DNA of 32,000 bases from an uncultured bacterium (GCA_964565945.1 CAZMGY010000018.1:39297-71296); one strand, 5' to 3'; counted from the stretch's first letter, positions 1 to 24,263 are shown. Made by a program: numbers and translations. The notes: generated from the sequence alone by a model not told the origin.

Positions 1-890
1 TGAATCCGCGCACCCAGTTGTAAAAACCTGTTTTGAAAGCTTCCAACATATGAGACAATCCAAATTTTTTCTCACGCTGAGTTAACTTGCCTTGATGAGA
101 GCGCATAATAACATCGTAAAGCTTGGAATTTATATCCCCTTCGACAGCCACCTGATTTTGTTTTAAAACACGTAAACGACGCAAAACTTCTTTGCTCATA
201 TCACTGGCATTGATGGTATTTTTACCTGATATTCTCTTGGCGCCATCCAATGTAAGAACACGGTCAAAATCTTCTTTGCGATATTGGGTGGTGACCAATG
301 CATGCTCGACAGCTTTACCCATAGAATCATAGATGTAATCGTTGAATTCCTCTAGGGCCGTACGGTTTCCGTACATATCAAATTTTGAATTAAGCTTATG
401 AGTCACTTGTTCAAAAAGATTGTATTTAAAATCAAATTCCGAAGACGCCTCAACCAAGAATTTACCAGTCAATTCTCGTCCTTCCAAATCAAGCATCGCA
501 GTCCCATCTTCATAGGCGCGTACACGGTAATTATAGATATATTGTTCACGACCTTTGAGACGGCCTGTTAGTTCATCATAGATGTTAGCACTCTCCTCTT
601 CTTTGGTTAAACCTTGAATCGTATATCGTTTTTGCGCAACATCATAAAGAAAATTGGTTCCTGTTTGTGTCATTTTGTTGGACTGGCGTCCATCGGTATA
701 ATAGGTGTAATGCGTAGCTAAGGCACGTCGAGTAGCCATATTATTCGTATCGGGATACTCCCATCGACGATCACTTAAAAGACGACCATCTTCACGATAC
801 ACACGGTCAAAAGTTGTGGTTTGTTTTTTCGATAAATAATCAATTTCGTGACTATGACTAAGGCGCAGGTTATCGTTGTATCCCATAATG
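1..890 (-). repeat. YD-type repeat block 5, continuing beyond the window edge.
   Basis: Translated motifs: RVYREDGRLLSDRRWEY, HYTYYTDGRQSN, NIYDELTGRLKGREQY, AYEDGTAMLDLEGRELTG, KFDMYGNRTALEEFNDYIYDSMGKAV. Confidence 0.6.
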
Positions 891-3800
891 CGCTTGGTAT
901 TCTCGCTTTGAGAAAAGCCATTTAAGAGAGCGTCCTGATCGATCACGAGCGTATCACCATCCAGTCTTTTAGGCAACTTACCATTGAGAAGATTTGTGCT
1001 ACGATTTTTTTGATATTCTTGTTTGGTAACATGAATCGGCATACCACGGTAATCGAATTTCTCAAAATGTTGCACAGATAACCTTGTATTTCCTTTTAAA
1101 TGAATGGCAGAAAAAAACCCTTCCATAGCGGCCACACGTTTATGAGAATTAGAAATCCTGGCATAATCTAAGCTGGCAATGTTAAGTTCGTAAGGACCAA
1201 TAATCGAAACGAGGGCTTGGAATTTGTTTGCAATTAGCACCAAAGCCGTATTGGCATTTTTAATAGCGTCTTCAGGCACGGTTAAGGCCTCTTCATTGAT
1301 CATTTTAGCTAAAACATTGGCTTCCTCCGTCGATAAAACGCCATTTTTGTTACGATCGGATAAGGCTAAACGAAATTCGGCTAACACATCGACCACTTGA
1401 GGTTGTTCTTTGACAATTCGTTGCATAATCTTAATTTTGTCGACATCAAGACTTTGTTGAACCGGAATACCAGTAGGATTGCTTGCCGACACAGGATTCA
1501 ATTTATTAATGATTAGCTCTAAAGTGATTTCGGGGCGAATGACAAAGCCTTGAGCAGCGCGATCTCTAAGGTTATAAATGTAATTACCAAACAAGCTATC
1601 CAAAAAGGCATTTTTGTCAGCGTTGCTCAAACCATCAAACGTCATCATCCATGCGCTAAAAGCCGCTTTCACACCCTGAACTTCAGGATAATCTTGACCA
1701 GTGAGAATACCACGAATATTTTGAAGATCTTGAGCTGTGGCATTATTAACTGCTTTAAGGGTTCTTTGCAGGTCTTTTAAACGAACAGCAAAGCGATCTA
1801 ACTGCCCTTGCTTAGGATTGGTGTAATCAGAGCTAATCAAAAAGTACTTCTCAAGGATTTTTCGTGCTTTCTGAACTTTCCAGGTAACCACTTGCATATC
1901 GTCATGAGAAGTTTTACCTAAATCTGTTCCTTGCGCTAAAAACTTTGTTTTATAAATATCTAAATAAGCACCCTCGTTCATAACCATTACGTATTCATTA
2001 ACTTTTCTTTTAAAGCGATAGTCTAGGCTGTTTTTGCTGTAACTCAATGTTTTCCATAGAGCATCTTCGACATCATCCGCAAAGTCGAGCTTGGCTTTAA
2101 ATTCTGCTTCAGTATCATCTAAAGCATCTGCACTCCAGGTGGTGTAGGGCAAATCCATATCATAAAAATCAATCAAACCAGCTGGAAGCAAGTGCTTAAG
2201 TGGACTTACACCCACAGGTAATTCATTAGAGCCACTGTTCAAATTAAGACGAATTTCTTTAACACTATTATCGTAAAAAAATTCTTTGACTGTGGTTTCT
2301 GTCAACGCGTAGTTGTTTTCTCCAAATCGATACTTGGATGTCGTTGCGGAGTCCCAAGTGACCTGACCATCATTGTCATATGTCCGTTGACTTTTGATTT
2401 GCGTTTCATCCTTGTAATACGCACCACCTTCTAAAGGCACATCCTTTAACTGACCCCATTTGTCATATTTTCTAGATAATGATGTCGACGAAGTAACAAG
2501 GCCGGTGTTGTCACCACCAGTTTGAGTTGCCTGGTCATAGTCTTCGTAATAAAAGGCATAGTAGAGCACCTTACCAGTTGTTCCTGTCACTTGACCCGCT
2601 TCGTTCTTAATAGCTTCTAGAAAAATACCATCCAATACGGTTCCATCTGCACGTTTGAGCCCAATGGTTTGATCTGGACGAATAAAATAACTGACTTGAC
2701 CATCCTTAATCATATATTTGCCAATCTGTGCTGGGGGTTCTATCTCTGTCTTTGCTAAAATAGAACCCCCAGCCACACTAAAAGCGTCATCTAAGTGCAA
2801 TACAATGGGATTGCTGGCTTCATCTTTAAGAGTCAATTGATCAACATCAAACCGATCTTCACGAACCTCTAGAACATTGGAACCAGTGTTATCATAACGG
2901 TAGTTACGCAAAATATTATGGACTTTATTTTTTTTAGCATAATCAGTTTTTTCAACCTTAATAAACTTCTTGCCATAAGAATTAGTTCCTTTTTCCATGC
3001 TAGCCAACAAATTACCATTGGCATCATAGGCCCTTTCTTGAATAACATAGTTCTTATAAAAAATATTCATTTGACTCGATGTGCGACTTAAACCTAGAGC
3101 ATTGCTATGCTCGGGATCACTTGAAAATTCTGGAATCGTAAAATCGAGCTTGTCTTTGTCGATAGCAAACCACATCACATTATCGGTGCGACTACCGTTA
3201 TCCACACGGTCTTCACGTTTTTTAATAAGGCGTCCATTTTGATCATATCCCATATTCCATGTATATTTGAGAGATACATTCCCTTTAGAATCAAAATTCT
3301 TGGTGTTTTCAGCAATTTTTTGTCCCAAACGGTTGTATTCGATACCTGAATAATGGGTTTGGCTAACCGCATCACCCTTATCAACAAAGTCATTGAAAGA
3401 CACTAGTCGACCATCGCGATCATAAAGCATATCGTTGCGAATTAGGGATTGCGCTACACCCCCTACTTTTTCTTCTTTTTCGATCGAAATATTTTGCCCT
3501 AGTGTGTTATAAATCATTTTTTTCACGAAAGTAGAAAAAGACTTCGCAGAGCTATTGTATCCATTCTCACGGTAACTGGTGATACGTCCCAATAAATCGT
3601 ACTGAGTATCTTTACGAATGGTTTCGATGCGAATATTAGGTGCCGAACTATCACTCACTAACTCAAAGTAACCAAGATTTTGTCCAGCTGTGTTGTAGTT
3701 AATATTTGATCGTGAACTATAAATGGTTTTATTGAGTGGATTATTAAACGAATCGCGACCTTGCTCATAATTGACTTCGTTATAGGCTGTGTTGCGTCCT

Positions 3801-6800
3801 GATGAATCATAAGTTAAAGCTTGCCATATACGTGTTTTGTTCAAATCGGGTGCATCTGTCGAGCGTGTGATCTCTTCGAAGGATTGTGTGCGTCCAGCGA
3901 CATCGTAGCGCATATTTTGGCGTTGTGTCACAGTTAGTTTTTCAAGCAACGAGGCATCTACTTTAAGGTATTTTTTGCTTGAGCGATCATAATCAAGATT
4001 TTGACGAATAATGTTAAAAATACTTCCTTTATAATGCGCAAACGTATCAGTTAAAGTCATTTTTGTAAAATTCGAAAGCTCCTCAAAAGCATTAAGAACT
4101 TTTCGTTCACCATTAATGTAGCCATTGTTTTCTAATTCGGTCCAAAGCATTGCTTTTTGTGCGACTGTCAAATCAAGCGCATCAAAAACGGATGCATCAA
4201 GTTTACCTTTAAATTCAGCGTTCAAATAGTTAAGATATTCGGTCACAACACTGCGTTGATTAGAAGAAATAGTTGCTTTTTGATGCTTGCTGATATCTTG
4301 ATAAACAAACTTAAGTCCGTCTTTATAAATAATACCTCCGTTAACAAGGTTTGTTAATTCTATTTTCGAGAATTTAAACAAATTGACCTCATATTGTTTA
4401 ATAATCACACTTTTTTGCTCAGAAACGTCCTGATAGGCCTCGACGCGTCCTAAAGCATCATAAGTCATGCCAGTTCTTAAGGTTAAAACATCTAAATCAG
4501 GCTTGTCGTCGCTGTTGGTACGCTCTCGATAGCCCGTTAGCTGTCCACCCCAGTTATAAATCATATCTGATCTTTGCACCAAAGTCCGTTGTTTAGGCGA
4601 CTGCGAATTATACTGTTCTTCGATATAGGAACTATTCTGACCCAGGGCATTGTAGACCATGTTGCTACGAATATGGGTTTCTTTGCTATCAAACTCTAGA
4701 CCAACACCTAGTTTATGGTTCACATCAACGTATCCCAAGGTTTTGCTTTCTTCGTTGTAAATGATATTGATTCGCGTATTCATTTCTAAGATATAAGCAT
4801 CATTGGCCACAAATTCAGGAACTTTTTGACCATAGGCATCACGAACAAAATCTCCTGAACTATGTGTTTTCTTGAAAAAGATATCTGGTCCAAGTTGAGA
4901 ATGCCAACGTCCATAAACAATTTTGCGTGTCTCTGGATCCGCTGAATCATAGTAATAAACTGGATAAGATAGAGAATCTGTTCTTGTTGCATTGATGCTT
5001 GCCATCGAACCATCAGCTAAGTAAAGCTGTGCACCCTTTTCATCCTTAAGGTTCAAAACTCCAAGAACTTCTTTCATAACAATATTATGATCAGTGTCTT
5101 TATACAATTTAAGACCATTAATTACTTCGACCGTCAAATCTCTAGGATCAAACTCTGCTTGTCCAGACTCGCTGAATTCACCGTTATAAGTGAATAAATC
5201 TACATCTGTGTCTAACAAATCGCCGTAAATAGCTTCTTTAAGCACATTGTTTTCGATGTAGTACAGATCCTCACTTTGATCATTCTTAAGAATCTGATCT
5301 TCACGATAATAATCAAAATAGTAAGGCTGATTGCGATCATATTGATCTTCGCTATAGGTTTTGAACTCTCCCGTTTGCAAAGGGTTACCATCGGCATCAA
5401 TATTGTAAGGATTGTTGTTGGTTTGATCTTGATACGAAGCCATCTGCCCCAATGAGTTATAGGTAACAAAACGTCTTTTTGTTTCTTTGTAGTTATTTAG
5501 CAATCCTTTAATTTGATCTTTTTTATATTGAAATTTTTGGAACAACAGAACGTTCTGAATGTTAGCTGCCGACAATCTGCTTCCGCTATCGTTGATGTAA
5601 AGATCCGACGCCATTAGCTTTTGACGTGTTAAAGGATCTGGAGAATCATAGATATGTTGAGAAAAAGATTGTGCAAAGCTTAATTTTTTTTGAACCGCAT
5701 ATAATCCTTTGAGAATCTCTCCATCTTTGCCATAAAGAGTCTGCGCTTTGCCAAAAACATCATAAAGTTTTTGAGCTGGATCCCACATGTAATAACCTTC
5801 TTCTTCGGTCATAACACGCTCAAATGAGGATGAAGATGCAATAGCATCCATAATGGCCTGCTTCATTTCTTCCACTGATTGATAAGTTCCGTTTGGGTAG
5901 CTGTCCAAAAGTAATTGATTAAGGTCATAAAATACGCCATCAACTTTGATACGGCCCATTTTGAAAATCACACCTTGGCTCACTTGTGTTGTTTTGAGCT
6001 TAATCCGATCTGTGATTTGGCCCAATTCATCTTCAATTTCAAGCACCTCACCCTTAATCAGTTTAGCTTTTTTCTCCGCCGTATAAGTATCCCAGTTGGC
6101 CGGAAGCTCATACAATTGTTCCACTTCATTCGTAAATTCACCCCCTTCGTGAATCAGATCATCATAGGCAATTTGTTGACCAAAACGGTTGTAACGTGTG
6201 TTAGTTCGCTCGGTTGTTGTTATCTGTTGAGTTTGATCGTTTTTAACAAACTGCACATAACCAAGAACATAGCCTTGTGAATCGTAAGTTGTACCCTTAC
6301 GAACAGTATGAGTGAGTTCGTTGATAGTCAAAGGCTTGCTCACTGTTTGTAGGTTTAAATTTTTACTAACACCGCCTCGCATAACTCTTAATGTTTTTTG
6401 CTCTAACAAAAGTTTTTTCTCATCTGGGGTTAAATCATCAAAGGAAAGAGAGCCATCTTCAGAAATGTTTTCGTAGTCATATAAGCTTTGCTGAACAGTA
6501 CCATCATCCGTTTTACGGTTGGTTTCGGTGTAAGAAACTTCTTGACCAAAACCGTTGTAACGAATCATTTGTTTTTCTTTACGCTGAATCGTTGCATCCA
6601 CTTTGTTGTTCGAAATCTCGGTGAAGCTCTCAATTTGACCAAAAGAGTTATAGCTAACATTTTCACGGCGTGTAAAATTCTTTTCTTGAATTTTTTTCTT
6701 AATCGACTTACGAATATAGCCCATATAAACACTGCTTGTTTCGATATATTTATCAATGAACTTAACAATAACACCATCATTGGCAGGTTCTGAAGGATCC

Positions 6801-12800: not shown

Positions 12801-15800
12801 CGAGACATCGCCAACACATCCGATTTTTTAAAGCGATTCATCATCGAAGACGAGGCCACAGAAAATTTGATTGTTTCTTCTCCCAGAACTACAGAGCCCC
12901 CACTCAACACAAGTGCTTGCTGTTCTTCGTTAAGCTGGCTGAAACCATAGTGATCACTATTCCAAAAAGCATCCCACTTGGAACGATAATCCACGTCGGC
13001 GCCATCTTCATTCACGGTATAAGACGTTTCCCAACCTGTTGGAATGCGGAAAAATGTTCCTAACTCTTCACTTGTGCTACCAATTTTGTAATCTTCTTGA
13101 TCATACTCGAGTTCTTGGCCAAAGCTGTTATAAGCGATGTTATAACGAACCGTAATCTCTTTCATATTAGGAGATGCGTTTTTAACCCGAGATTCCTGAT
13201 ACGTCAAAAGCTTACCAAACTTATTGTACTGAATGTTTGTCCGTTCAGAGTGTGTCACGTCATCCACATCAAAGGCAGTTTCGTAATCAACAACAAAGTC
13301 ATCTTGGATCGCATTGATCATGCCCGTGGTAAAATCTTTATCATCAATAAGACTGTCTTGATTGAGGTCGAAGCGAGCCCATAACGCAGGATTCACATTA
13401 GCTAGAAACTCATAAAGCATTAATTTCTTAATCAAGCTCAAGTCATAATCAAATTCATTCAACGTTCTAGCTCCAAATAGTCTGCGGAAACGAACTTCTC
13501 CCAAAGCTTGCTTCATATCTTTAACCGAAATAATTTCTTTGTCTGGAAAGTATCTTCCGTACTCCACGGCGCCTAATGCCTCAATAGCTTGCGAGCGTGT
13601 GACTTCTGTGGCAAATCCAAACAAACGGGTGTAATGGTTGTAGCCAAGATCTTGAGTTACTTTTTGAGCAAGCTTAACAAAATCATCAACCGAAAAGGTC
13701 GAAGCCGTTTCAAGCTTTTCGATGATCGATAACAGATAATTTTTTAGGGATTGGCCAGTTAAAGAATACTTTTGAATCGTTTGACCTTGTTTTTGTGATT
13801 TTTCAATGTATTGTTTTTCGCGACCAAAAACATCATAATAAATTCGTTTTTTCTCTTTGATGGTGATCGAATCTGGCGATGATGTGCTCACACTGCTCTC
13901 TTTAGTGTATCTTTCCTGGCCTAGTTTATTATAGATCGTGTCGTTACGATGGACAATATCAGTCACATCAATCCGGGCTTCGCTCAATACCGACTTGGAT
14001 TTGATCTCGACCACAGCATCTCCCTTCTCATCTTTTAAACCAGTGCGAATGGTTGTATTATCATCAGCTGTAATGGCCTTTAAAAGGGCATTCAAATCTT
14101 TTATATCTGATTCCTTAATGGTCAAAAGACCATCTTTCTCCAAAAAGAAATGTTGCTCTGGTATCAACTGGGTTTTGACATCTTGAGTTGGAGTTTTGTA
14201 ACGCATAACTTGAGCTTGTCCAATACGACGCGAAGCAATTGAACGTTTTTTAAGTAGTCCCGTTGTGTCATAGTGCATATCTCTCACATAATCGATGGTC
14301 AATAAATCAGGCTTACTGAGATTTTTTTTGGTTTCGGTATAACCGATAAGCTGAGACAAATCATTATAGGTGGCTCCAATCCGTGTATTAAATTCTCGTG
14401 TGTCAATCACCTCTTGCAACTGAATACCTTTGCGAGAGGCTAAAACACCCCCCGCAGCAAGAGAATCCACAAAACTGACGCGTGCCTGTTGAGAATTACT
14501 CCATAGCTGAACAACAAAATCAATGTTTTTCTCGCTGTAATCAAACTGATTCAGTTTAGAGCGCAATTCGCTTTCTGATGTCACATTCCAATGAAAAAGG
14601 TCCTTATTGCTGGGATCGCTAACAAGAACCTGTTGTTCAACCGAATTGAGTGATGCTAGCAAGCTTGCATCCTCAAATGAAGCTCTTCCAATTTGACTTC
14701 CTAACAATTCAGTGAAGCCTGTGGCCTGAGCATGAGGCATTTGATCAAGCTCATTCTTGGTATAATAACGTAAGTTTCCAGTAGCTTTAGCCACAACAGA
14801 CTTAACCTGATCACCATCGACATAAAGCGCTTGATCTTGAGCGCTCATTTCGTTCCACTCCTCTTGAGTCATATAGAAAGATGTAAGACCTGTATGGTCA
14901 TCATTAATATCTACTTTGTGAAGCAATTGCAACAGAGAAACTTTTTGGGGTGTACCATAGGCCTTTTTCTTCTCAAAATCCAAATTCGCCCACTCTGACT
15001 CCGAGAAAAAATCAAAAGTTCCTGGAGAATCGTTTTTTTCACTCATCACCAAAACGCTGCCATTTTGCAAAATTCGTTGAAACGATGAATCTTGATCATT
15101 GACTTTTTCAAGTTCATCTCTTAAGGAATTATAAAAGATTTCTGTAACTTGATAGCGATCAAAATAAGTCGTTATATCTAAAGAATTTCTAGCATAAGGC
15201 AAAGCTGAACCTTCAACGCGAATAAGCTGATGAGCCGTCCCTGCAATAGTAACACTTTGCCCAAACAAAAGCCGTTCTTTATCTTCAGATGCTAAACCAT
15301 CAAACACACCACCTTTGATCCAAAAGGTACTCCAGTTACCTTGAACCCTCGATGCGCGCATATCGAAGGCCGCCTGCCACGCACTACGATCGCGATCAAA
15401 GCCTGTTTTCAAATCGTTAACAGCGACTTGATTATAGTTGGCAAAACCAAAAAAGCGCTTTGTTTGCCCATGCTTTGTTTTCGATTCCAAAAATCCTTTT
15501 TCTTGGCCCTCTCCTGTGTAAAAAATCGATTTACGCTCGACATGTGTTTCAACCCCTTGGTTATCTGTTACATCTTCGACATAGCTTTCAACTTGAACAT
15601 TGGAGTTATAAGTCGTTTTTCGACGTAAAATTGTGGTCGTATCGTTGATCTCGATGCTATCATTCACATAACCTAAAGTGAACGCTCCCAAATCATAATC
15701 GTCAAAAAAAGAGCCTATGTTCCTCACATAGGTGTTCAGCAAGTCTCCATCATTGGGGAAAAAAGTTTCGTTTTGAGCCACGGTGGCAATATTATCTGCA

Positions 15801-16696
15801 TTATCTGCTAAAGCAGCCAATACAGCAACTCTTTGCGTTCCGCTCAAATTTGTATCAATCAGATTTTTGAACCAGCTTAAGGCCTGTGAACGGATATCCA
15901 CAGCTTCGTCATGATAAATTTTAGCAATATATTCCTGAGTTAACAGGGCTTTGAGCCATGCATTATTTTCAACAATTTCCCTATTAACGCGTTCAACAGT
16001 GCTGACACCCTTTTTTTGGACTGTTTGACGATACGAATTCTGGCGGTCAAATTTTTCATATGTGATATCTGTCATTACTGTGATTGTCGTTAAATCGGGC
16101 TGAGCTGTTGAGCGTTTAATTTCATCATAGGCATTAATATTGCCCGTTTCGTTGTATTGAGTATTGGTGCGCAATAATCCTTCTTGAATGTCTTGCAACA
16201 CCTTATTATCCAACTGATCATAGGCCAATCGATGCGTAACATCGAGATACTCAAACGTTTGACCAAGACGATTGTACTCAATAGCACTTCTCGAAACACG
16301 TTCTGATTTTTCAAGGCTCTGAGTTTGCCCTTTAATCGTTTGTGAGCCTTTAACATTTTCGAATTGGGTGTAACCCGTCATTTGCTCAAATTGATTATAA
16401 GTGATATGGCTACGTGTTTTGCTGGTTTCAGAGCTACCTTTAGCTGCTATTTTGCTACTTTCACGATAAGCGACTTCTTGATTCAAATCATTACGTACAA
16501 TCGAAAAGCGGGATGTGCTGTTAATGTTGTTCAGTACATTTGTTTGTTGATAGCTCACCCCTGCGCTAGTCAATAAGTCCAAATCATTTTGATCGATCAC
16601 CTCATCTTTGTTTAAATCAAAATGTTTATCATAAGCGCGACGTTGCTCAATCATGTCTTTGATCATCATTTCGGATTCATAATAGTTGAAGTTCAT
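1..16696 (-). CDS. Giant secreted YD/RHS-type repeat protein, distal part. The 3' end lies beyond the window. 5,565 codons from ATG 16696; the frame is open from 16753. Most likely the same gene as 16784-22390.
   Basis: Hand translation of the minus frame with codon first bases at coordinates = 1 mod 3 shows no stop from 16753 down to position 2. I re-verified the 60-nt lines starting 16681, 14041, 13321, 13021, 12961, 12001, 11881, 10981, 10021, 9001, 8041, 6001, 4021, 2041, 1321 and 1. Dozens of YD-type repeats are present, e.g. NDMLYDRDGRLVSF (~3420), TGMTYDALGRVEAY (~4450), ENVSYNSFGQIESF (~6650). Every track ORF in this span is short and in another frame. Confidence 0.85.
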   Translation of the reverse strand, partial: MNFNYYESEMMIKDMIEQRRAYDKHFDLNKDEVIDQNDLDLLTSAGVSYQQTNVLNNINSTSRFSIVRNDLNQEVAYRESSKIAAKGSSETSKTRSHITYNQFEQMTGYTQFENVKGSQTIKGQTQSLEKSERVSRSAIEYNRLGQTFEYLDVTHRLAYDQLDNKVLQDIQEGLLRTNTQYNETGNINAYDEIKRSTAQPDLTTITVMTDITYEKFDRQNSYRQTVQKKGVSTVERVNREIVENNAWLKALLTQEYIAKIYHDEAVDIRSQALSWFKNLIDTNLSGTQRVAVLAALADNADNIATVAQNETFFPNDGDLLNTYVRNIGSFFDDYDLGAFTLGYVNDSIEINDTTTILRRKTTYNSNVQVESYVEDVTDNQGVETHVERKSIFYTGEGQEKGFLESKTKHGQTKRFFGFANYNQVAVNDLKTGFDRDRSAWQAAFDMRASRVQGNWSTFWIKGGVFDGLASEDKERLLFGQSVTIAGTAHQLIRVEGSALPYARNSLDITTYFDRYQVTEIFYNSLRDELEKVNDQDSSFQRILQNGSVLVMSEKNDSPGTFDFFSESEWANLDFEKKKAYGTPQKVSLLQLLHKVDINDDHTGLTSFYMTQEEWNEMSAQDQALYVDGDQVKSVVAKATGNLRYYTKNELDQMPHAQATGFTELLGSQIGRASFEDASLLASLNSVEQQVLVSDPSNKDLFHWNVTSESELRSKLNQFDYSEKNIDFVVQLWSNSQQARVSFVDSLAAGGVLASRKGIQLQEVIDTREFNTRIGATYNDLSQLIGYTETKKNLSKPDLLTIDYVRDMHYDTTGLLKKRSIASRRIGQAQVMRYKTPTQDVKTQLIPEQHFFLEKDGLLTIKESDIKDLNALLKAITADDNTTIRTGLKDEKGDAVVEIKSKSVLSEARIDVTDIVHRNDTIYNKLGQERYTKESSVSTSSPDSITIKEKKRIYYDVFGREKQYIEKSQKQGQTIQKYSLTGQSLKNYLLSIIEKLETASTFSVDDFVKLAQKVTQDLGYNHYTRLFGFATEVTRSQAIEALGAVEYGRYFPDKEIISVKDMKQALGEVRFRRLFGARTLNEFDYDLSLIKKLMLYEFLANVNPALWARFDLNQDSLIDDKDFTTGMINAIQDDFVVDYETAFDVDDVTHSERTNIQYNKFGKLLTYQESRVKNASPNMKEITVRYNIAYNSFGQELEYDQEDYKIGSTSEELGTFFRIPTGWETSYTVNEDGADVDYRSKWDAFWNSDHYGFSQLNEEQQALVLSGGSVVLGEETIKFSVASSSMMNRFKKSDVLAMSRGLISMEDFSTVTGTNAEKKAMWADLVAKNYIKNVGVYTDKMNRLLRHQDLNLKAPFSEHTEEIYNFLKNKKNDVIGLNDLDALGLNSQQLWDELEAKGYLLAQGLLLTKFLQMKEAVEFTLDERADQKAVIFAVLKNNQKEKVITKTKIEIPSGSEYRIISELLEESGELSEETRNVMREVIYNIVQAKNEENPDKSAIPSNSLMKNVINNYKKSLEENLASERRALANLNLTLNTLESPVDDERIAELFEEKVLINDRINAIVSKIEITEKLFGNELEGLFEAPEGWDTEAEFVVHEDGEEVSYQSKWRAFWLSPSFGYNTLTSEEQLILLGKSAREMTRIELGSAYLLSNATIEQMIVHNLIKIDPNKDTHIVWNIATRTILASKLLEFAYSVSDKTKILNLWDQTHSVALPELRDRAARVQIPVQGSFQLAPKSEVSLNTFLLPDKDSANSGERERWEEYFGLAEHGQLTDSQTFIGLRNDWKAQFEVPTSMTQAEWNNFWRVGGLIDSFSAVQKYKLLQGSKVICDMVTATEEVKGIHYYKAFHFERTISASLSNNMRENLQIIMSKYHAEKTKRNRYAERQYELQQHIDALHTVQSENNQYISRINQISNDQIQDIINQQTGLSRLVEEHKVQMMKYELLEPMGSLFADIDRLLDEEMDLLRNKAAGVTFSARSQNTALIIQLQKWANPTIKKVKNLDLSTPSNAVYEYFTPDVFATLNANDYDKTNATNTTLQNASTEMTAALSALSAVSASPPTADYVAYRIKHDVYSYGIKRMEVLAGYYEQMIATFFKKYADMHANMDSQVEQMSAIRTQTDRLRDHSFNRIAAGANLHDVFNMFEGMDAGVKADAMAATNVFLQSFKDAAIRVFNDPTQNVTATLRSSNQNLFPTDLDTLVAGDYARSYERTTNLFNDSLFETVNYQTRAYESVGNTEFNAFIDGGLPVNDYNIQINYFTPNFNIRDTLLRGFAVDQYNAAQAFEGTIDYDSVPNLSYGEAKKQVQAALVRREAQDIVKIISQEVRSGIPDDNITDLEEVWVQDIHMNASNLINHAKLFLRAYLDGEDPDRDNFNLTRAHVNYTDLPDGEYKSFLSNLVNNLTLVDLDRSATMVSIEDADPSTSPNLSDLPTHFIFQEKLASDTQTYNLRQMYQDAVTADDIQKKNAVLMILAFDEQNDSYDDIQTAFRKKVLLHTSGIMDVTESMNGHSDWIINNIDKAIPAYKPLIQNNYNADAGDADKALKDVIDTQLARLRVLNATGFATHFANQADSILDIYDPNYATPNPADFQVPAFSPYGNRPASFQTKPGFHISRAIASVSKQRIINALKIKEENDAYVDYKGLYDAAQTIMDNNSGSTTLQQSRRAAANQIRDFAGLIIESIKANMSLLKEMAVKGVSADEALVGSQKIAADTAIANRNNARAKFTAIRDVTNQFITNQMNVKTNDSYLADGQARDQSLEALMGSLITDRVVTPAPQGDISASRASTKAGVTENLYNYTSAAPEANDIHTFIEQVEHASAYGATQVADNFSNIAIVNNFISEELQRYDLISRARNAAQDRINRGNVDLADYRTYYETAFDNTLSNNTLGSMGQGSIVNGIRTHVNDQYFSDAYDYWETRGDFFGLRQYDDAGAGTFAFNNIIDKAGWSRFNGDRTYTNKNYDDTSLFNAIYSEESQRIRSGLIESGLNAIDQNQNVTRGQFNASVNAYLASPTAANRLTLVNQLDHVSIADLTSLTNAQLAVLTLNHGTLSIGASTGTYNWRSLLNAHQSASNDQERYIASMKIRAAVEAIKTNVTNNIKKEVHNYVNDDYTDMLPTAHNNFVKLYIMTDDDETNNYEPYTESNKPSSDSIYQQRNRLLTESSSKVDGDITECLTKSKAILELSSDSIADYFAKELSVMNLSLDSMQLNDNIRTLAQSINQHHTDWIGAVDSPEVLGAKPDLKLKGIEANYKRRELASDQEMNILFTRYQNTVSRLQSLASASSSVEASIGSELDFLIKKDPSEPANDGVIVKFIDKYIETSSVYMGYIRKSIKKKIQEKNFTRRENVSYNSFGQIESFTEISNNKVDATIQRKEKQMIRYNGFGQEVSYTETNRKTDDGTVQQSLYDYENISEDGSLSFDDLTPDEKKLLLEQKTLRVMRGGVSKNLNLQTVSKPLTINELTHTVRKGTTYDSQGYVLGYVQFVKNDQTQQITTTERTNTRYNRFGQQIAYDDLIHEGGEFTNEVEQLYELPANWDTYTAEKKAKLIKGEVLEIEDELGQITDRIKLKTTQVSQGVIFKMGRIKVDGVFYDLNQLLLDSYPNGTYQSVEEMKQAIMDAIASSSSFERVMTEEEGYYMWDPAQKLYDVFGKAQTLYGKDGEILKGLYAVQKKLSFAQSFSQHIYDSPDPLTRQKLMASDLYINDSGSRLSAANIQNVLLFQKFQYKKDQIKGLLNNYKETKRRFVTYNSLGQMASYQDQTNNNPYNIDADGNPLQTGEFKTYSEDQYDRNQPYYFDYYREDQILKNDQSEDLYYIENNVLKEAIYGDLLDTDVDLFTYNGEFSESGQAEFDPRDLTVEVINGLKLYKDTDHNIVMKEVLGVLNLKDEKGAQLYLADGSMASINATRTDSLSYPVYYYDSADPETRKIVYGRWHSQLGPDIFFKKTHSSGDFVRDAYGQKVPEFVANDAYILEMNTRINIIYNEESKTLGYVDVNHKLGVGLEFDSKETHIRSNMVYNALGQNSSYIEEQYNSQSPKQRTLVQRSDMIYNWGGQLTGYRERTNSDDKPDLDVLTLRTGMTYDALGRVEAYQDVSEQKSVIIKQYEVNLFKFSKIELTNLVNGGIIYKDGLKFVYQDISKHQKATISSNQRSVVTEYLNYLNAEFKGKLDASVFDALDLTVAQKAMLWTELENNGYINGERKVLNAFEELSNFTKMTLTDTFAHYKGSIFNIIRQNLDYDRSSKKYLKVDASLLEKLTVTQRQNMRYDVAGRTQSFEEITRSTDAPDLNKTRIWQALTYDSSGRNTAYNEVNYEQGRDSFNNPLNKTIYSSRSNINYNTAGQNLGYFELVSDSSAPNIRIETIRKDTQYDLLGRITSYRENGYNSSAKSFSTFVKKMIYNTLGQNISIEKEEKVGGVAQSLIRNDMLYDRDGRLVSFNDFVDKGDAVSQTHYSGIEYNRLGQKIAENTKNFDSKGNVSLKYTWNMGYDQNGRLIKKREDRVDNGSRTDNVMWFAIDKDKLDFTIPEFSSDPEHSNALGLSRTSSQMNIFYKNYVIQERAYDANGNLLASMEKGTNSYGKKFIKVEKTDYAKKNKVHNILRNYRYDNTGSNVLEVREDRFDVDQLTLKDEASNPIVLHLDDAFSVAGGSILAKTEIEPPAQIGKYMIKDGQVSYFIRPDQTIGLKRADGTVLDGIFLEAIKNEAGQVTGTTGKVLYYAFYYEDYDQATQTGGDNTGLVTSSTSLSRKYDKWGQLKDVPLEGGAYYKDETQIKSQRTYDNDGQVTWDSATTSKYRFGENNYALTETTVKEFFYDNSVKEIRLNLNSGSNELPVGVSPLKHLLPAGLIDFYDMDLPYTTWSADALDDTEAEFKAKLDFADDVEDALWKTLSYSKNSLDYRFKRKVNEYVMVMNEGAYLDIYKTKFLAQGTDLGKTSHDDMQVVTWKVQKARKILEKYFLISSDYTNPKQGQLDRFAVRLKDLQRTLKAVNNATAQDLQNIRGILTGQDYPEVQGVKAAFSAWMMTFDGLSNADKNAFLDSLFGNYIYNLRDRAAQGFVIRPEITLELIINKLNPVSASNPTGIPVQQSLDVDKIKIMQRIVKEQPQVVDVLAEFRLALSDRNKNGVLSTEEANVLAKMINEEALTVPEDAIKNANTALVLIANKFQALVSIIGPYELNIASLDYARISNSHKRVAAMEGFFSAIHLKGNTRLSVQHFEKFDYRGMPIHVTKQEYQKNRSTNLLNGKLPKRLDGDTLVIDQDALLNGFSQSENTKRIMGYNDNLRLSHSHEIDYLSKKQTTTFDRVYREDGRLLSDRRWEYPDTNNMATRRALATHYTYYTDGRQSNKMTQTGTNFLYDVAQKRYTIQGLTKEEESANIYDELTGRLKGREQYIYNYRVRAYEDGTAMLDLEGRELTGKFLVEASSEFDFKYNLFEQVTHKLNSKFDMYGNRTALEEFNDYIYDSMGKAVEHALVTTQYRKEDFDRVLTLDGAKRISGKNTINASDMSKEVLRRLRVLKQNQVAVEGDINSKLYDVIMRSHQGKLTQREKKFGLSHMLEAFKTGFYNWVRGF
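2330..6690 (-). repeat. YD/YN-G-Q repeat block 4, the densest and most regular, with inserts at ~5500-6080 and ~3960-4400.
   Basis: Translated motifs: ENVSYNSFGQIESF, MIRYNGFGQEVSY, TRYNRFGQQIAY, FVTYNSLGQMASY, NMVYNALGQNSSY, DMIYNWGGQLTGYRERTNSDDKPDL, GMTYDALGRVEAY, NMRYDVAGRTQSFEEITRSTDAPDL, ALTYDSSGRNTAY, NINYNTAGQNLGY, DTQYDLLGRITSY, DMLYDRDGRLVSF, GIEYNRLGQKIA, NMGYDQNGRLI, RAYDANGNLL, YRYDNTGSNV, RTYDNDGQVTW. Confidence 0.75.
11780..11950 (-). repeat. Trp-rich module, copy 2, 1,101 nt downstream of copy 1 in the coding direction.
   Basis: Hand-verified translation: FEAPEGWDTEAEFVVHEDGEEVSYQSKWRAFWLSPSFGYNTLTSEEQLILLGKS. It aligns position for position with copy 1. Confidence 0.7.
12880..13050 (-). 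repeat. Trp-rich module, copy 1 (P-x-G-W-E-T...EDG..V.Y.SKW.AFW...G...L..E.Q).
   Basis: Hand-verified translation: FRIPTGWETSYTVNEDGADVDYRSKWDAFWNSDHYGFSQLNEEQQALVLSGGS. Confidence 0.7.
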
Positions 16697-16700
16697 ATCA
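13090..16700 (-). repeat. YD/YN-G-Q repeat block 3, interrupted by non-repeat stretches.
   Basis: Translated motifs: SAIEYNRLGQTFEY, TQYNETGNINAYDEIKRSTAQPDL, GATYNDLSQLIGYTETKKNLSKPDL, RDMHYDTTGLL, DTIYNKLGQERY, RIYYDVFGREKQY, NIQYNKFGKLLTYQE, IAYNSFGQELEY. Confidence 0.65.
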
Positions 16701-16753
16701 GTCAGAGAGCTTCCCAGCTCAACGTCACGTTCATCATAAGAAAACTTCAAACC

Positions 16754-16812
16754 ATCAAGATAAACACCCTCCCAGGTTTTTAGCTTAACACTTGTTCCCA
16801 AAGCAACACCAT
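16754..16812 (-). other. Local frame disruption inside the giant gene: two in-frame stops bridged by an open +1 frame.
   Basis: The main frame reads ...KVDTSDGVAFGNKC*AKNLGGCLS*WFEVSYDERD, with TAA at 16786-16784 and TGA at 16756-16754. The frame with codon first bases = 0 mod 3 is open from 16821 to 16705. It reads LGTSVKLKTWEGVYLDGLKF, which joins DGVA and SYDERDVELG smoothly. The shift points coincide with a T4 run (plus-strand A4, 16799-16802) and the AAGTTTCT stretch near 16739-16745. Confidence 0.8.
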
Positions 16813-19800
16813 CAGAAGTATCTACTTTTAAATTCGCCAAATTTTTAGGATCAAAATTAAACGTTGGATTTGGCACATAAACTTTCTTAATAGCTTCCCA
16901 GACACGATCTTTGTCACTACGCCGCATCGAGCCAAGAGCCTCATAAAATGAGTCGCGATCATTGCCCAACTTGGTCACGGTCACTTGCGTAGGGCTCTCT
17001 TGATCTTCAACAACCAATCCTTGATCCAACAACACTTGCAAGCGATTGCCTAAAAGATCTTTACTGATACGTCCGTCATTATTGATTGCGCGAATAATCT
17101 GATTCATGTCGGTCAATTCCTCACGAGACGTGCTTGAATCAGAGGTCAGAGTATAAACCTGGGTTACATTTGATTCTTCATCCCAAATTCTATTGTCGGT
17201 GTACTTACGTTCCCAACGATTAATGGTATCTACAGCACCTGGAACACTGTGTAAATTGGTATCTTCAACAAAGCTTTTCAGACGAAATTGATCATCGTAT
17301 TTCATATCATAGCGAAGGGTTCGGCTTTTTTTATCAGGGCTGTCCGAGCGTTGAGTTGTGTCTTCGTAAGACAAAATAAGACCCGTCGAAACTTGCTGAA
17401 TTTTAGCATGGGCATCAATGTAATCAACCTTTTTGTAAGTAATATTTTTTCTTTCGCTGATTTGACGCGAACGCCGCTCACCGCCTAAAACATTTAAGCT
17501 AAAAACCATATTTTCCGTGATTGAACCAGGAAGAACATTTTGTGCACCCAAATTTCCATAAGGACCGTTAACACCAAAGAAGAACTCTAGGATTAAATCA
17601 TTGACGGCTTGTTGGCTCACAGCATCTGGCTCGACCGCCTCACGTTCTTTAAGCGCACGATAAATCTTTTGAGCCAGTTTTTGACGTGGAGCATTAATAT
17701 CATCTTTAGCCATTAGGAAATCACTGCTCTTAAATACGTCTTGCCCTGATTTGATCTGATTAATCATGGTAACAGTTTCATTTTGATCGAAGTTTTTTGT
17801 TAAATGTTCTCCCAAAAAGATTTTATGCGTTAAGGCAATTTTAGCATTGACTGGAATCGTATCGATCTTTACGTCGCGACCATTAAGGGAACCAATGGCT
17901 ACTCCGTCCACGTCGGGTGTTTGTGATACCTGAGAATTCTCTCCAAAAAAGTAATCAAGAATTTTATTATTTACAGAATGAACAGTGATTTCACCATTGT
18001 TGCGGGGATCCCCATCTTCGAGATTTACCAAATCGTTGTAAATGTCACTAGCCAAAACCTTAAGCGCGTGATCTTTATCCTTAAGATAATAAAAATCATA
18101 TTGTCCAAAGACCTTAGTACTATTAAGCAATGATACAGCTAATTGTTGCAGAGCAGCACCTTCATAAGCTACATATTCATCCGCTTCCCCCATTTTTTCT
18201 GTGATTTCTTCGTAAGACAACATCCTCCCATCGGCATCATAGTTTCCAGACCAATCGACAATCGTATCAATCGCTTGCTGACCATTGTTATCATATTTGC
18301 GGGTGATTTTATGCTCATTGATCCGTAAGCTACGAACTTTTTCGTATTCGGTTTCAATCACAGTGATTTTCTTAGGAAAGCTTACATCAATTCCCTTAGA
18401 ATGATTGTCATGTTCCATATCAAACTCAGCTTCTTTGGAGAAGATCTTGTTGCCGCGAGAATTATATTGGCCTGACCAGCGAAAAGTTTTGTTCTCTTTA
18501 AGCTCACCTGTCGATTTATAAGTAATGTCCCCTCGATAAAATTCTTTTTCCTTGCGATCTTTTTTCTTTGCACCTTCAAGATAGGTGTAAGCACCTTGCC
18601 ACTTTTCATAACGTTCACCATTCACCGTGTTCATACCAGTCTCATAAGAACCTAGGGTTTTTCCATCACTGTTATAAGGGTATTTTGTCACAATTAAATC
18701 ATCACGACTCAAACCACTAGGTCGAAGAATAGCTAAATTAACTGTGCTGAGATCAAAATCTTTGGTGATTAAAATGGCTTGATTATTACTATCTAGAATT
18801 GGCTTAATAATACCCTCACGATTTTTGTATTCTAGGATGTTGGAAGCATTCCATTTGATGTCGACAAATTCCTTGCCTTCGTTCTTTTTGTAGGATTTAT
18901 AGCTTAATTCTAGGTCATTATTGTCGTAAGAAATGTCACGACGTTTCTCAACAGAGGTTCCTTGAATTTGACCAGAAATCAATTCACGATCATATTCCAA
19001 TGAACGATCAGCTGCATCATACTTCATATTCTTCATTCTCGTGATGTTCAATACCCCATCAGTCACGGTGCGTTCGGTGTAAGATTCTGTTCTTTTCAAA
19101 GTATCGTATTTCATATCAAAACGATGCGTCTGGGTGCTGTGGCCATTAGAGATGTTTTTCGAGAAATATTCTTTGCGATTGTCATCATGATCATAATAAA
19201 TTGCCTGCATTTCCATGTTGTACTCAGATCCTTCAGCATTCACGCCCTCTTCTTGATAGGCATATAGGCGCTTTTTTTTGTCATAAACCATGTTTGTTTT
19301 TTTGCTATAGGTTTCATTCACAATCGGATGCTCAATTCCTTTGGTCTCTTTTATTTTAACGATGCTTCCAGTCAAACGTTGGTCAGCGTTATAACCAAGA
19401 TTTGACGTTTCTGTCATAGATTCGCTGTATGATGCAACTTTACTCTTGTCTTTCACATCACGGTGGGTTACTTTGCGATAATCGGTGTAATTAAATAACT
19501 GCCCTTTAACCAAACGCACATCGGACTCTAAGTGACCCTCTTTAATCAAGTTTTCGTTACTATAAGAATCTAGCTCACTCGCATCGCGGTAAGATTCAGA
19601 AACCATGTCTTTGATCAATTCACCGCGCTGACCTTCACCTTTAATAATCCAACTTTTACTCTGTTCCGTTTCGGTGTTGTACTTAAGCAAGTTAAAATCC
19701 CTTTCCAATTCACCATAAACAGAACCTCCCCAAGTTTGATAGCTAACAGATTCGACACCCACTTTATGTTTTTCCAAGTCTTTGGCCGTTAAAACATAAC

Positions 19801-22390
19801 CCAAATCATTCAAAGCATCGAAATAAAGGTCACTTTTGTTCGTCAAAAAATCGTTATAATCGGCTAAATCACTTGCAATATCGTAGGATGGCAACTGCTG
19901 ATGAAGTCCCTGCGATGTCCAGTAAACAAGCAACTCTTCAGGACTTTGCACGATCGAGTTCCAAATATCTTCCGTAACCTTAAGTTCGGCTTTTTGATAA
20001 AGACGACTTTTATACTCCATAAATTTTTCATTTAAAAATCTTTCGATATCTACATTAAAATAATCACGAATGAATTTATTCGACATTTTGCTCATATTGG
20101 CATTGCCATTGCGCACAATGCTCAAGAGATCGACATCGGGATAACTCTTATCCAACGACGTTTCTAAGCCTGAAAAACGAAGTAAATTATTCCACAACTC
20201 ATCTTTAACGATAGTGATTTCGGAATCATCGCCTTGCAAATCATTTTGCAAAATAAGATGGTCATTCAATACCTTGGTTAACCCTGCCTTAAAATTAGTT
20301 AAGGCTTTTATCATTAACTGTTTTTCTTCACGATAGTTGTCGTAACGCAAAGCTGTCATTTTATCTGTGATTGTTTGGCTATAGTTACGAAATGTCTCGG
20401 CATCATCACCAGATAAGGCTGGCCACTGGGATGTCTCACCAAACACAAACTCGATAATTTCGTTAGCATCTTCGAAATTGACATTCGGTGCATCGGCATC
20501 GATCCGTTGACTTTCAATCACGGGCTTGGCCAATTCTTGTAAAGCAAGGTCAACGTACTCCATATACGAGTTATCTCCTTTATCTCTGTTATTGATAAAA
20601 AGACCTGTATTTTTAAAAATACGCGTTAAAATATCAATGTCGGAGGCACTTAAAACACCTTTGATTTCAAGATAGGATAGCTTTGAATCCACATCCTTAA
20701 GGCTATTCCATACTTTATCTGTCTTGGATCGAATAAGACTTAAAAGATTGTCTTGCGGATTGTAGAACTTATTATGATGCTTGATTGTTTTTTTGTTGTA
20801 CGAACGAATATTATCGCGATAATCGTAAGTAGCATCATAATAAATCGATTCTTCATCCGTTAGCTCATTATTCTCATCAATTTCATACTTATACACTTTA
20901 TATTTGGTTATATTCCCATTAACATACTCTGTTTCGAAGCTTGCTGTCTCCAAGATGCGGAATAATCCTCGACGATAAACAGCAAATTCAGGAGCTACTT
21001 TAAAATAACTATAACCCTCTAAAGATTTAAATTTTTCTGTGATAACTCCAGCTTCTGTGAGATAATTGCGTTTGATCAAATCATTCCAAATATCTTTGTT
21101 TTTGTAAGGGATGTGAGATAAATCAATAACGTCTTGACGATTATGTGGATCCCAAAGTCCCCATTTTTCGACTTTGGTGGCTTCTTGATTGCTATATGTT
21201 GTTTTCCTGTAAGACAATACATCACCCTTTTGAGTGTAAGCAATTTGCTTGTCATAACTCATCGCGGCGTCCCAAATTATCAAGGTTTCCTCGCCATCAC
21301 TAGCTTTCGTATGTTCACGGTAAGACACAAGCTTGTCATTGGCTTCCGTTTTACTTTCAAAAAAGTAATTCGCTTCCCAGGTAATATCTTCAACTTTACC
21401 TGAATAATCGACAACTTTCTTTTTATAACCCAAGAGGTTTTTGTATTCGTCGTATGATTGCCCTGTTTTAGAAAAAGAACGCCAATCTGTTGTTGTTACA
21501 CGTCCTTGTTCGTCAGTGATTTTTTCAAAATAGCTTAATAGGTTGTTCTCATCATCATACGTAGAATTATTCCACTCTTTAACTCGTGGATTATTGCCAT
21601 AAATATCAAAAGTAGTTTCTCTATAAGCCAAAATATTCTTAGCGTCATCATACTCCAAACCTTCCCAAACCGTTCTTTTGGTGTTACCAAATTCATCGGT
21701 TTCATCACGTTGGTAATAGATGATGTTTTCTGAATCATCGTATTTAGCGTCTTTCCACTCAACGGTTTTTTCGGGACCATATTCCAAAACACCCTCAGGG
21801 TTTTCTTCGGATTTGCGGCGATATTCCTGGCGAGTTGTTTCAAAATAATAGGCCATAGGCGCTTCAGGATCGTTGTTGTCAATATACTGAAAATCGACAT
21901 TACGACGAGTCCACCGATCGTACTTATCGACCTGAGGTTCATTTTCGATTTTCATCACATGGCCATGCGAAGTGGTTACAATGCTGCCATCCTTTTTGGG
22001 CGTAATGGTTACTCCCAAGAAATCCATAGCTTTTTTAGTGGTTGCAAGAACTTGCTGGATTTCTTGTTGAAAGATTTGAACACGGTTGAGATCACTAAAG
22101 ACTTTCTTAAGCATTTTGCCGTGTAGCTCTTTTTGGGCATTAAGGGTGGGATCGTAAAGACTTTTACCTTCGAGAAGGTTTTTCTGTTTAGAGATTTCGG
22201 TTTGGTTTTGCTGGGCGAGCAACTGATCAAGGGTCATAACCCCAGATTGCTGTTTAACGTTCTGAATAGCGGATTGTTGAGCAAAAGCAAGTGAAACATC
22301 CATAGATGTTGCAATAAAAAGTTGCACAGTTAGACAACTAACCACTCGAACATATTTTTTTAATGGTCCCGCAAAAATGTCTAATATCAC
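16784..22390 (-). CDS. Giant secreted YD/RHS-type repeat protein, proximal part (1,868 sense codons, GTG start, TAA at 16786-16784).
   Basis: GTG at 22390 lies 6 nt downstream of AGGAG (22401-22397), and an in-frame TAG sits at 22402-22400. The N-terminus reads (M)ILDIFAGPLKKYVRVVSCLTVQLFIATSMDVSLAFA/QQ. I translated every codon by hand from 22390 to 16787 and found no stop. YD repeats include RKYDNNGQQAIDTIVDWSGNYDADGRMLSYEE (~18190-18300). This ORF is absent from the supplied track. Confidence 0.85.
16790..19760 (-). repeat. YD-type repeat block 2, with a non-repeat insert at ~17300-18120.
   Basis: Translated motifs: NMVYDKKKRLYAYQEEG, MKYDAADRSLEYDRE, ISYDNNDLELSY, KYPYNSDGKTLGSYE, RKYDNNGQQ...NYDADGRMLSYEE, TLRYDMKYDDQFRL. 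Confidence 0.65.
20760..21990 (-). repeat. YD-type degenerate repeat block 1 (protein level).
   Basis: Translated motifs: LEYDDAKNILAYRETTFDIYGNNPRVKEW, STYDDENNLLSYFEK, AMSYDKQIAYTQKGDVLSYRK, IYYDATYDYRDNIRSY. Confidence 0.6.
22280..22390 (-). other. Predicted Sec signal peptide of the giant protein (residues 1-37, cleavage after AFA).
   Basis: A basic n-region (KKYVR) is followed by a hydrophobic h-region (VVSCLTVQLFIATSM) and an A-x-A-type c-region (SLAFA|QQ). Confidence 0.6.
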
Positions 22391-22453
22391 AGCCCTCTCC
22401 TAAACTTCGGGTAAGTTTGTTTCCCCAAACACAGCAAGCTCACTACGCCAGAA

Positions 22454-23434: not shown

Positions 23435-23503
23435 AATGCAAGAAGTCCGAATTTAAAAACTGCTGCATATACCCTTTGAGACAGATTCAGCGAAACAATA
23501 CCC

Positions 23504-24253: not shown

Positions 24254-24263
24254 TCAATTCTCC

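Follow-up and report, generated by a model that had tools for sequence, protein, structure and literature searches.

The 32,000-nt stretch analyzed here in full, hereafter the window, comes from an uncultured bacterium (GCA_964565945.1 CAZMGY010000018.1:39297-71296). Its left part is occupied by a giant gene on the minus strand, and its right part by a run of housekeeping genes. Direct translation of the giant gene from the GTG at 22390 to base 2 yields 7,463 codons with neither a stop nor an ambiguous base, whereas the other five frames each contain 286–853 stops across the same 22.4 kb. A preliminary description of this DNA had reported a single continuous minus-strand frame reaching the window edge apart from a 60-nt patch; the frame is indeed continuous, and the patch proved to be open like the rest. 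The ribosome-binding AGGAG and the upstream in-frame stop reported for this start can both be read in the sequence, the former separated from the GTG by a 6-nt spacer and the latter, a TAG, lying three codons 5′ of it. Gene calls on the Logan assemblies differ in the choice of start: one takes the same GTG, and others take a GTG at 22345, which is 15 codons downstream. As had also been pointed out, the gene is missing from the track of open reading frames (ORFs), which lists nothing of 150 aa or more for positions 1–22390; the reason is that the lister leaves out ORFs that run off the window.

The complete gene is much longer than the part in the window. Exact look-ups of the neighboring proteins located the same locus in Logan assemblies of at least 14 SRA runs, and an NCBI contig carrying it measures 71,296 bp. 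On one of these contigs, SRR30621489_1673 (70,832 bp), the gene is complete; the call comprises 18,624 aa and stops some 5.6 kb short of the contig end, corresponding to a total of about 55.9 kb and a product of about 2.1 MDa. Given 18,624 codons in full, the window holds the first ~40% of the gene (codons 1–7463). All protein-level results on the giant protein given below cover aa 1–7463, the remaining 11,161 codons (33.5 kb) lying beyond the window. The earlier statement that the gene is unfinished at the edge and several-fold larger than known RHS proteins was thus, if anything, too modest. Four Logan contigs from separate SRA runs, aligned to window positions 12826–31713, are 99.98%–99.995% identical to it. 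Such independent, near-identical assemblies exclude a one-off misassembly of the locus, which the preliminary description had named as an outcome that would overturn its reading. The organism recurs almost clonally in these at least 14 public sequencing runs. On three contigs of 59,974 bp (SRR12008129_6527, SRR19984991_30583, and SRR19987508_7085), the gene call reaches 16,868 aa before the contig breaks off. These three independent assemblies end at the same codon, about 50.6 kb from the start of the gene, yet in another sample the assembly continues past this point; a recurrent assembly breakpoint is suggested, caused perhaps by a repeat, strain variation, or a drop in coverage.

Several properties of the frame itself bear on whether the gene is real. 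Its codon usage correlates with that of the neighboring genes at r = 0.82, compared with r = 0.27 for an out-of-frame control. Long DNA repeats are absent from the ORF, the longest being a 31-nt match of 71%. Self-comparison of the whole protein by BLAST gave the trivial self-match alone, and chunked BLAST detected internal repeats of about 30% identity, which appear to be old. We conclude that the giant gene is a genuine and intact bacterial gene. An artefact, whether a chimera or false join in the assembly, a pseudogene in decay, or an untranslated frame open by chance, could draw on the identical point at which the three 59,974-bp contigs break inside the gene and on its third-position GC content, which is lower than that of the neighbors. 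It is effectively refuted by the stop-free 22.4 kb, by the agreement of gene calls between assemblies from at least 14 runs, by the full 18,624-codon call enclosed in a longer contig, by native codon usage combined with the lack of internal DNA repeats, and by the existence of homologues with conserved blocks and of a collinear orthologue, as described below. As a separate observation, the third-position GC content is 0.35 in the giant gene (1–22390) and 0.45 in its neighbors (22826–31575), with similar overall codon usage.

The sequence is strongly enriched in a tyrosine-based turn motif. The preliminary description had counted many YD-type motifs by eye, and comparison with shuffled sequences bears out the excess: YD occurs 66 times against 31 in shuffles, Y[DN]xx[GN] 38 times against 7.3, and Y[DN]xxG[RQK] 27 times against an expected 0.44. 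A family-derived hidden Markov model (HMM) detected 37–41 hairpin units with a YDxxG(R/Q)L core in the giant protein and 0–2 in shuffles. The hairpin consensus of the family reads ..TTTERSDITYDSLGRLTSYTETTTD.., with a β-hairpin unit of 29–32 residues; the unit consensus SLGLTTTTERSDITYDSLGRLTSYTETTTDSG was derived from 1,213 family hairpin units. The most frequent spacings between motifs are 32 and 29 residues in the giant protein; the family (n = 849) has its modes at 30 and 32, and Escherichia coli RhsA at 21. The unit is thus about 50% longer than the ~21-aa unit of RhsA. In an hhalign comparison, the family alignment matched residues 741–759 of E. coli RhsA with 94.7% probability, over 19 columns only, which correspond to the YDxxGRL core.

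Curated models did not recognize this unit. Three pieces of the giant protein of about 2,500 aa each gave no Pfam or NCBIfam family at E ≤ 0.01, including RHS_repeat (PF05593), the YD repeat (TIGR01643), and the RHS core (TIGR03696), and the 580 repeat-rich residues gave no Pfam RHS_repeat even at E ≤ 10. In the E ≤ 10 scan, RHS_repeat appeared below threshold in four of 21 relatives, with a best E of 0.0064. PHROGs yielded no match to the giant protein; neither did phmmer against all PDB sequences at E ≤ 1, nor at E ≤ 10 with the repeat region, and a family profile search of the PDB returned no Rhs, Tc, or teneurin chain. The RHS core motif P-x4-D-P-x-G-L, whose presence had been proposed for checking, and even the shorter DPxG are absent from aa 1–7463 by regular expression, although the same expression finds the motif in E. 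coli RhsA as a positive control. The earlier assignment to the RHS/YD proteins is therefore partly supported: it holds for the YDxxG(R/Q)L motif and the local fold, and it does not hold for the curated models and the repeat period. Since no RHS/YD model matches, which the preliminary description had listed among the findings that would speak against it, and since the period is not ~21, formal membership in RHS/YD fails. A giant RTX/Bap/Ig-repeat adhesin was also considered and is not supported, as there is no Ig-like, cadherin, or BIg match in Pfam and neither GGxGxD nor LPxTG occurs in aa 1–7463 by regular expression.

AlphaFold2 with family alignments yielded two independent, confidently modeled blocks of the giant protein. 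In the block at aa ~6150–6400 (within model mbc70735d29e8; predicted local distance difference test, pLDDT, 90–97 there), 18 antiparallel strands of 10–15 residues are predicted, and the five-residue turns between them fall at the YDxxG motifs. The block at aa ~156–410 (within model m877751de9c25; pLDDT 70–97 there) contains 15 long antiparallel strands. Searching the PDB with Foldseek, the top eight matches of aa ~6150–6400 were all RHS/YD shells (E 3.5e-7 to 3.6e-3; template-modeling (TM) scores of 0.1–0.2), the best being the Rhs protein 8qja of a type VI secretion system (T6SS; 3.5e-7), followed by TcdB2-TccC3, teneurin-2, and the Yersinia BC component among others. For aa ~156–410, the Rhs effector Tse15 came first (6.7e-6) and YenB/YenC next, with β-barrel porins interleaved. 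Over both blocks, the global TM-scores against RHS, Tc, and teneurin shells are 0.1–0.27, which indicates a local match only. In a viral structure library, MORN-repeat and tail-fiber proteins matched best (E 5e-6 to 1e-3). In these models, the predicted local fold is an RHS-like hairpin strip. The multi-shell architecture proposed earlier is unlikely in the part seen, where hairpins form a minority of the sequence; their arrangement in short blocks amid large orphan inserts tends to speak against closed cocoons.

An exhaustive HMMER search with aa 5881–7080 against 1.84 billion representative proteins revealed 58 relatives of 26%–37% identity, with a best E of 4e-70 and up to 25 matched stretches. 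Many of them are very large, up to 7,965 aa. The named relatives are all annotated "hypothetical protein" and derive from four metagenome-assembled genomes (MAGs) of Elusimicrobiota (MFH1258653.1, 7,965 aa; MBK8869822.1; MBI4397317.1; and HOW28884.1) and one of Omnitrophota (MBU1785274.1). No real domain was found by Pfam in eight relatives. The giant protein is placed by these matches in a rare, unannotated family of giants found mainly in Elusimicrobiota MAGs. Its members have in common with it the 30–32-aa unit, the N-terminal hairpin variant, the insert module 'LP..W...LL.G', the N-terminal signals, and the depletion of cysteine. The relatives differ in being shorter (at most 7,965 aa, many of them partial) and much denser in repeats; the giant protein is 2–10 times longer and has much larger orphan inserts. 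Furthermore, a 57-kb long-read contig (L090; ENA ERZ25070786 ctg147967l) carries at nt 1–28943 consecutive, overlapping ORFs on the same strand, of 3594+, 96, 2980, 350, 343, 585, 345, 580, and 1604+ aa, none with a Pfam match. They are collinear with aa 501–7376 of the giant protein at 25%–30% identity and probably represent a single giant orthologue that frameshift errors have broken up.

The complete relatives share a layout: an N-terminal signal comes first, hairpins follow, and a transmembrane-like cluster within the final quarter precedes a non-conserved tail. Six C-terminal tails of relatives gave no real Pfam match. Read by eye, the last ~400 aa of some relatives contain hydrolase-like motifs, namely GHSxG-type in P0010 and P0013, DHSQG in P0003, and the phospholipase-A2-like YGNWGGRGWSG...HDYGY in P0028; these motifs follow a Gly/Ala-rich hydrophobic cluster, and the tails are unlike between proteins. 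The reading of some tails as lipase- or phospholipase-A2-like is tentative, Pfam finding nothing there. Short peptides also recur inside relatives ('VIPAEAGIH/VIPAKAGIH...GNDG' in P0010 and 'NVGQGFSLA' in P0005) and look like translated dispersed DNA repeats inserted in frame.

An exact 56-mer from the window edge is not found among GTDB species representatives, a protein-based scan of Joint Genome Institute (JGI) metagenomes for a leftward extension of the gene gave no match, and neither did word-indexed protein searches with aa 4464–7463 and aa 7164–7463. The word-indexed collection thus seems to lack the giant protein and its fragments, and the exhaustive search of the 1.84 billion representatives returned no self-match either.

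Along the chain, conserved parts alternate with parts unmatched in the family. The family-conserved parts comprise aa 50–450 and hairpin blocks at about 1000–1200, 1650–2300, 2650–3150, 5200–5450, and 5850–6450; in the conservation map, aa 450–950, 1200–1600, 3150–5150, and 6500–7463 have no match in the family. The block at aa ~6150–6400 is matched by up to 65 family proteins. Detectable hairpins cover about 11%–16% of the protein, in blocks of 2–9 units between large orphan inserts. Inside the central orphan region, the family HMM finds no hairpin unit at aa ~3250–5000, and aa 3750–5000 are rich in alanine (10%–15%). Degenerate hairpins toward the left edge of the window include FDRVYREDGRLLSDRRWEY and DYIYDSMGKAVEH, both read by eye, and aa 7222–7376 match nt 20353–20781 of L090 in phmmer. 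Four W..FW modules are present, the recurring small module reading 'W..FW...LL.G'. The three EF-hand-like loops might bind calcium, judging by their sequence.

The signal-peptide-like N-terminus noticed earlier was confirmed as basic residues followed by a lone hydrophobic stretch and an AFA/QQ site; this segment is the sole Kyte–Doolittle window above 1.6 across the 7,463 aa, and family members with true N-termini have a similar hydrophobic segment. The three cysteines that had been spotted in VVSCL, VICDM, and ITECL are exactly those present, at aa 19, 3726, and 5070. Cysteine amounts to 0.04% of the giant protein against 1.63% in the neighboring proteins, and the protein is acidic and almost cysteine-free over aa 1–7463. 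These features are consistent with a product exported by Sec. The positions of all features are collected in Table 1.

Table 1. Features of the window, with nucleotide positions counted from its first letter and residues of the giant protein where applicable
Feature	Residues	Position	Strand	Remarks
5′ 40% of the giant gene (codons 1–7463 of 18,624)	1–7463	1–22390	−	Open frame, runs off the left edge
Start region of the giant gene		22388–22402	−	GTG 22388–22390; AGGAG 22397–22401; in-frame TAG 22400–22402
Signal-peptide-like N-terminus	1–37	22280–22390	−	K11, K12, R15; hydrophobic 16–34; AFA/QQ at 35–39
N-terminal hairpin block	~156–410	21161–21925	−	Variant 'WxGxYDxxxxLxxYxExxxDxxGN'; conserved in up to 29 family proteins
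EF-hand/dockerin-like loop DLNKDEVIDQNDL	1925–1937	16580–16618	−	Regular-expression match only
EF-hand-like loop	3008–3020	13331–13369	−	Regular expression
Central ~2,000-aa orphan region	~3150–5150	6941–12943	−	No match in family, L090, Pfam, NCBIfam, PHROGs, or PDB
Best-conserved hairpin block	~6150–6400	3191–3943	−	8–9 units of 29–32 aa; Y[DN]xxG[RQ] turn; AlphaFold2, Foldseek
EF-hand-like loop	7012–7024	1319–1357	−	Regular expression
Last ~370 aa in the window	~7090–7463	2–1120	−	Degenerate, shorter-period YD-like hairpins; by eye, missed by HMM
AT-rich intergenic region separating the divergent giant (−) and ahpC-like (+) genes		22391–22825		Presumed promoter region
Housekeeping right flank		22826–31575		By Pfam: ahpC-like (+), then minus-strand genes in the order two His_Phos_1, aminotransferase, SDR, ribE, ribD, ftsY, nusB, ribH, ribBA
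Two adjacent histidine-phosphatase (gpmA-like) genes		23504–24725	−	249 aa full-length; 153 aa short
Longest aminotransferase ORF		24830–26167	−	445 aa
SDR gene		26097–26825	−	Upstream of the aminotransferase
Riboflavin cluster ribBA-ribH-nusB-ftsY-ribD-ribE		26827–31575	−	Includes nusB and ftsY
210-aa ORF		27031–27663	+	Antisense to ribE/ribD; probably spurious

The right flank agrees with the earlier remark that the giant gene sits beside core metabolic genes, Pfam identifying an ahpC-like gene and a riboflavin/ftsY/nusB group. Its gene order is repeated in the Logan contigs and partly in L107, from the closest relative, and L105, from the Bugula MAG. The nearest named match of FtsY is 72% identical and belongs to 'PVC group bacterium (ex Bugula neritina AB1)', PVC denoting the Planctomycetes–Verrucomicrobia–Chlamydiae superphylum; another relative reaches 83%, and both share the ribBA-ribH-nusB / ftsY-ribD-ribE-SDR-aminotransferase neighborhood (SDR, short-chain dehydrogenase/reductase). 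The Bugula neritina AB1 PVC MAG is the AB1_div genome, which is close to candidate division NPL-UPA2 (PMC5041132). These comparisons place the host among the uncultured bacteria of the PVC superphylum, as a relative of the Bugula-associated AB1_div. The AB1_div locus diverges after the shared synteny, and no giant gene is located there. We rejected gpmA as an uninformative taxonomic marker, since its matches of 73%–74% are scattered over several phyla and lack synteny. Neither the SRA run accessions nor the accession of the MAG turned up in the literature searched. No VgrG, PAAR, TcA, T6SS, or immunity-like gene was identified by Pfam on the visible right-hand flank, and none was found among the neighboring genes in the relatives L089 and L091.

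Some details of the flank are worth recording. The position of ftsY and nusB within the riboflavin cluster is kept in L107 and partly in L105, and an Rfam scan of the window returned nothing, including no flavin mononucleotide riboswitch. The pair of histidine-phosphatase genes is also found in L107; the Pfam match of the shorter product is confined to the first ~70 model positions, and its gene may be a truncated duplicate. The longest aminotransferase ORF overlaps the upstream SDR gene by 71 nt, and its start is ambiguous because Logan calls disagree (372 aa plus a 43-aa ORF, or 438 aa). Between its aminotransferase and His_Phos genes, L107 (nt 7706–12126) encodes two paralogous, signal-bearing proteins of 725 and 736 aa, 29% identical to each other and free of Pfam domains, which have no counterpart in the window and no relation to the giant protein.

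Taking the evidence as a whole, we favor with moderate confidence the explanation that the window contains part of an intact ~56-kb PVC gene of a long-hairpin family, whose product is a Sec-exported contact fiber or scaffold and not a canonical cocoon over the part seen. Once exported by Sec, the giant protein would form a very long contact structure at the cell surface or outside the cell, probably an extracellular contact fiber. The hairpin strips might serve as its rigid structural segments, and the inserts could carry binding or effector activities toward another cell, be it host or prey. Given that complete relatives end in a hydrophobic cluster and a non-conserved tail, the unseen last 60% of the chain may provide an anchor or an effector. 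Several points weigh against this explanation. The function is read from architecture alone, and Pfam, NCBIfam, the PDB, and PHROGs identified no binding, enzymatic, or toxin domain in aa 1–7463. Over half of each AlphaFold2 model is of low confidence, and an open strip is not geometrically separable from a closed shell in these models. Hairpin coverage as given is a minimum, since degenerate units such as those at aa 7100–7463 go unrecognized. The signal peptide was assessed by simple sequence rules and is thus signal-like by inference, and an RHS core, a toxin, transmembrane segments, or a secretion signal may lie in the C-terminal 60% beyond the window. Going further, one may tentatively entertain, though we find it doubtful, that the giant protein and its relatives, with their long-period (30–32 aa) offshoot of RHS/YD, are a distinct structural class: a modular open β-strip scaffold, in place of a closed toxin cocoon, that joins many unrelated, lineage-specific domains in multi-megadalton Sec-exported proteins and would build, from one gene, a micrometer-scale organelle for contact or delivery in uncultured PVC/Elusimicrobiota bacteria, which are possibly animal-associated.

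Two other explanations have to be weighed against the contact fiber. The giant protein could be a canonical, if oversized, polymorphic toxin of the Rhs/Tc type, in which the YD hairpins form one or more closed cocoons around a C-terminal or internal toxin; an RHS-core aspartyl protease would set this toxin free for delivery to a target cell. Rhs effectors and TcB/TcC shells do lead the structural matches, RhsA can be aligned over the YDxxGRL core, RHS_repeat is faintly detected in four of 21 relatives (E ≥ 0.006), the tails of complete relatives are non-conserved as in polymorphic toxins, and a signal-peptide-like N-terminus is present, with room for a core and a toxin in the C-terminal 11,161 aa. 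However, the giant protein matches no RHS_repeat, YD, or RHS-core HMM, lacks DPxG throughout 7,463 aa, and repeats with a period of 29–32 instead of ~21; its global TM-scores to cocoons stay at 0.1–0.27, and its longest contiguous hairpin run is about nine units. In TcB/TcC and Rhs proteins of known structure, most of the chain forms the shell around a small cargo, whereas hairpins are a minority of the giant protein sequence. Nor is there a VgrG, PAAR, TcA, T6SS, or immunity-like gene on the visible flank or beside L089 and L091, or a toxin match of Pfam in the tails of relatives. We therefore consider such a toxin unlikely. A slightly smaller chance is given to a membrane-embedded, multi-transmembrane apparatus for predation or episymbiosis of the Omnitrophota type, whose antiparallel β-helix 'tubules' and dockerin-like modules would attach to prey cells and digest their walls. 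The lineage is PVC-related and carries a giant gene, one family member comes from Omnitrophota, the giant protein has three EF-hand/dockerin-like loops, and complete relatives have transmembrane-like clusters near their C-termini. Nevertheless, a single hydrophobic segment in 7,463 aa contrasts with an average of about 22 transmembrane helices in Omnitrophota giants of at least 10,000 aa; no SecA/DEAD, carbohydrate-binding module (CBM), dockerin, or glycoside-hydrolase domain was detected in aa 1–7463; the visible flank contains no genes like those of type II secretion systems (T2SS) or for sugar transport; and the nearest named relative is a bryozoan-associated MAG that is no known predator.

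If the contact-fiber explanation is true, a single gene of 56 kb, taking up a considerable part of a small genome, would encode a 2-MDa extracellular structure beyond the reach of domain databases. The giant protein is a concrete case of a repeat type that escapes curated RHS/YD models despite its YDxxGRL turn and local fold; its unit is 50% longer, and metagenome surveys may therefore underestimate how common RHS-like architecture is. The protein further allows closed toxin cocoons to be contrasted with open hairpin strips in a testable way and adds a data point from outside Omnitrophota on the roles of giant bacterial proteins. Its size is no record, and these phyla are already known to harbor giant genes; what makes the case valuable is the family and the fold variant rather than length alone. 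With at least 14 public runs, reads, transcripts, and possibly host material are already available for checks of expression, full length, and ecology.

Giant proteins have been described from related lineages. Proteins of at least 10,000 aa are "frequently detected" in Elusimicrobiota and other PVC groups (bioRxiv 10.1101/2023.11.21.568195), and Elusimicrobiota are enriched in huge proteins that are still uncharacterized (Amaral & Devos 2024, PMC11573180). Those of Omnitrophota reach 147,155 aa and, at 10,000 aa or more, average about 22 transmembrane helices (10.64898/2026.06.07.730766). The giant protein resembles such PVC giants (West-Roberts et al. 2023; 10.64898/2026.06.07.730766; PMC11573180) in having an ORF of more than 10,000 aa mostly without annotated domains, antiparallel β segments reminiscent of RHS, dockerin-like loops, and an uncultured PVC-related host. 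In contrast to the giants of Omnitrophota, its part seen lacks internal transmembrane helices and SecA-DEAD, CBM, and dockerin domains, and its visible flank is housekeeping, devoid of T2SS-like and sugar-transport genes. At 18.6 thousand residues, it is far below the records of 85,804 and 147,155 aa. Judging from the viral library, the giant protein is also comparable to MORN-repeat and phage tail-fiber folds, which are elongated antiparallel hairpin repeats and not closed shells; it differs from them in that no MORN or tail-fiber HMM matches and in that RHS shells outrank MORN among solved structures.

The closest comparison is with the RHS/YD shells, represented by Rhs proteins (8qja; Tse15, 8uy4), TcB/TcC (6sup, 6h6e, and 4igl), and teneurin (9g2h and 6cmx). 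The giant protein departs from them in its unit of 29–32 aa with strands of 10–15 residues, as opposed to ~21 aa; in the lack of matches to RHS_repeat, YD, or RHS-core models and, over the part seen, of the RHS core motif; in its poor global TM-scores; in the arrangement of its hairpins in short blocks between huge inserts; and in a visible flank without T6SS, TcA, or immunity genes. It is also about 8–13 times larger than characterized members. What it has in common with these shells is the Y-D/N-x-x-G-R/Q-L hairpin turn, an N-terminus resembling a secretion signal, and the fact that both of its modeled blocks find their best matches in the PDB among them.

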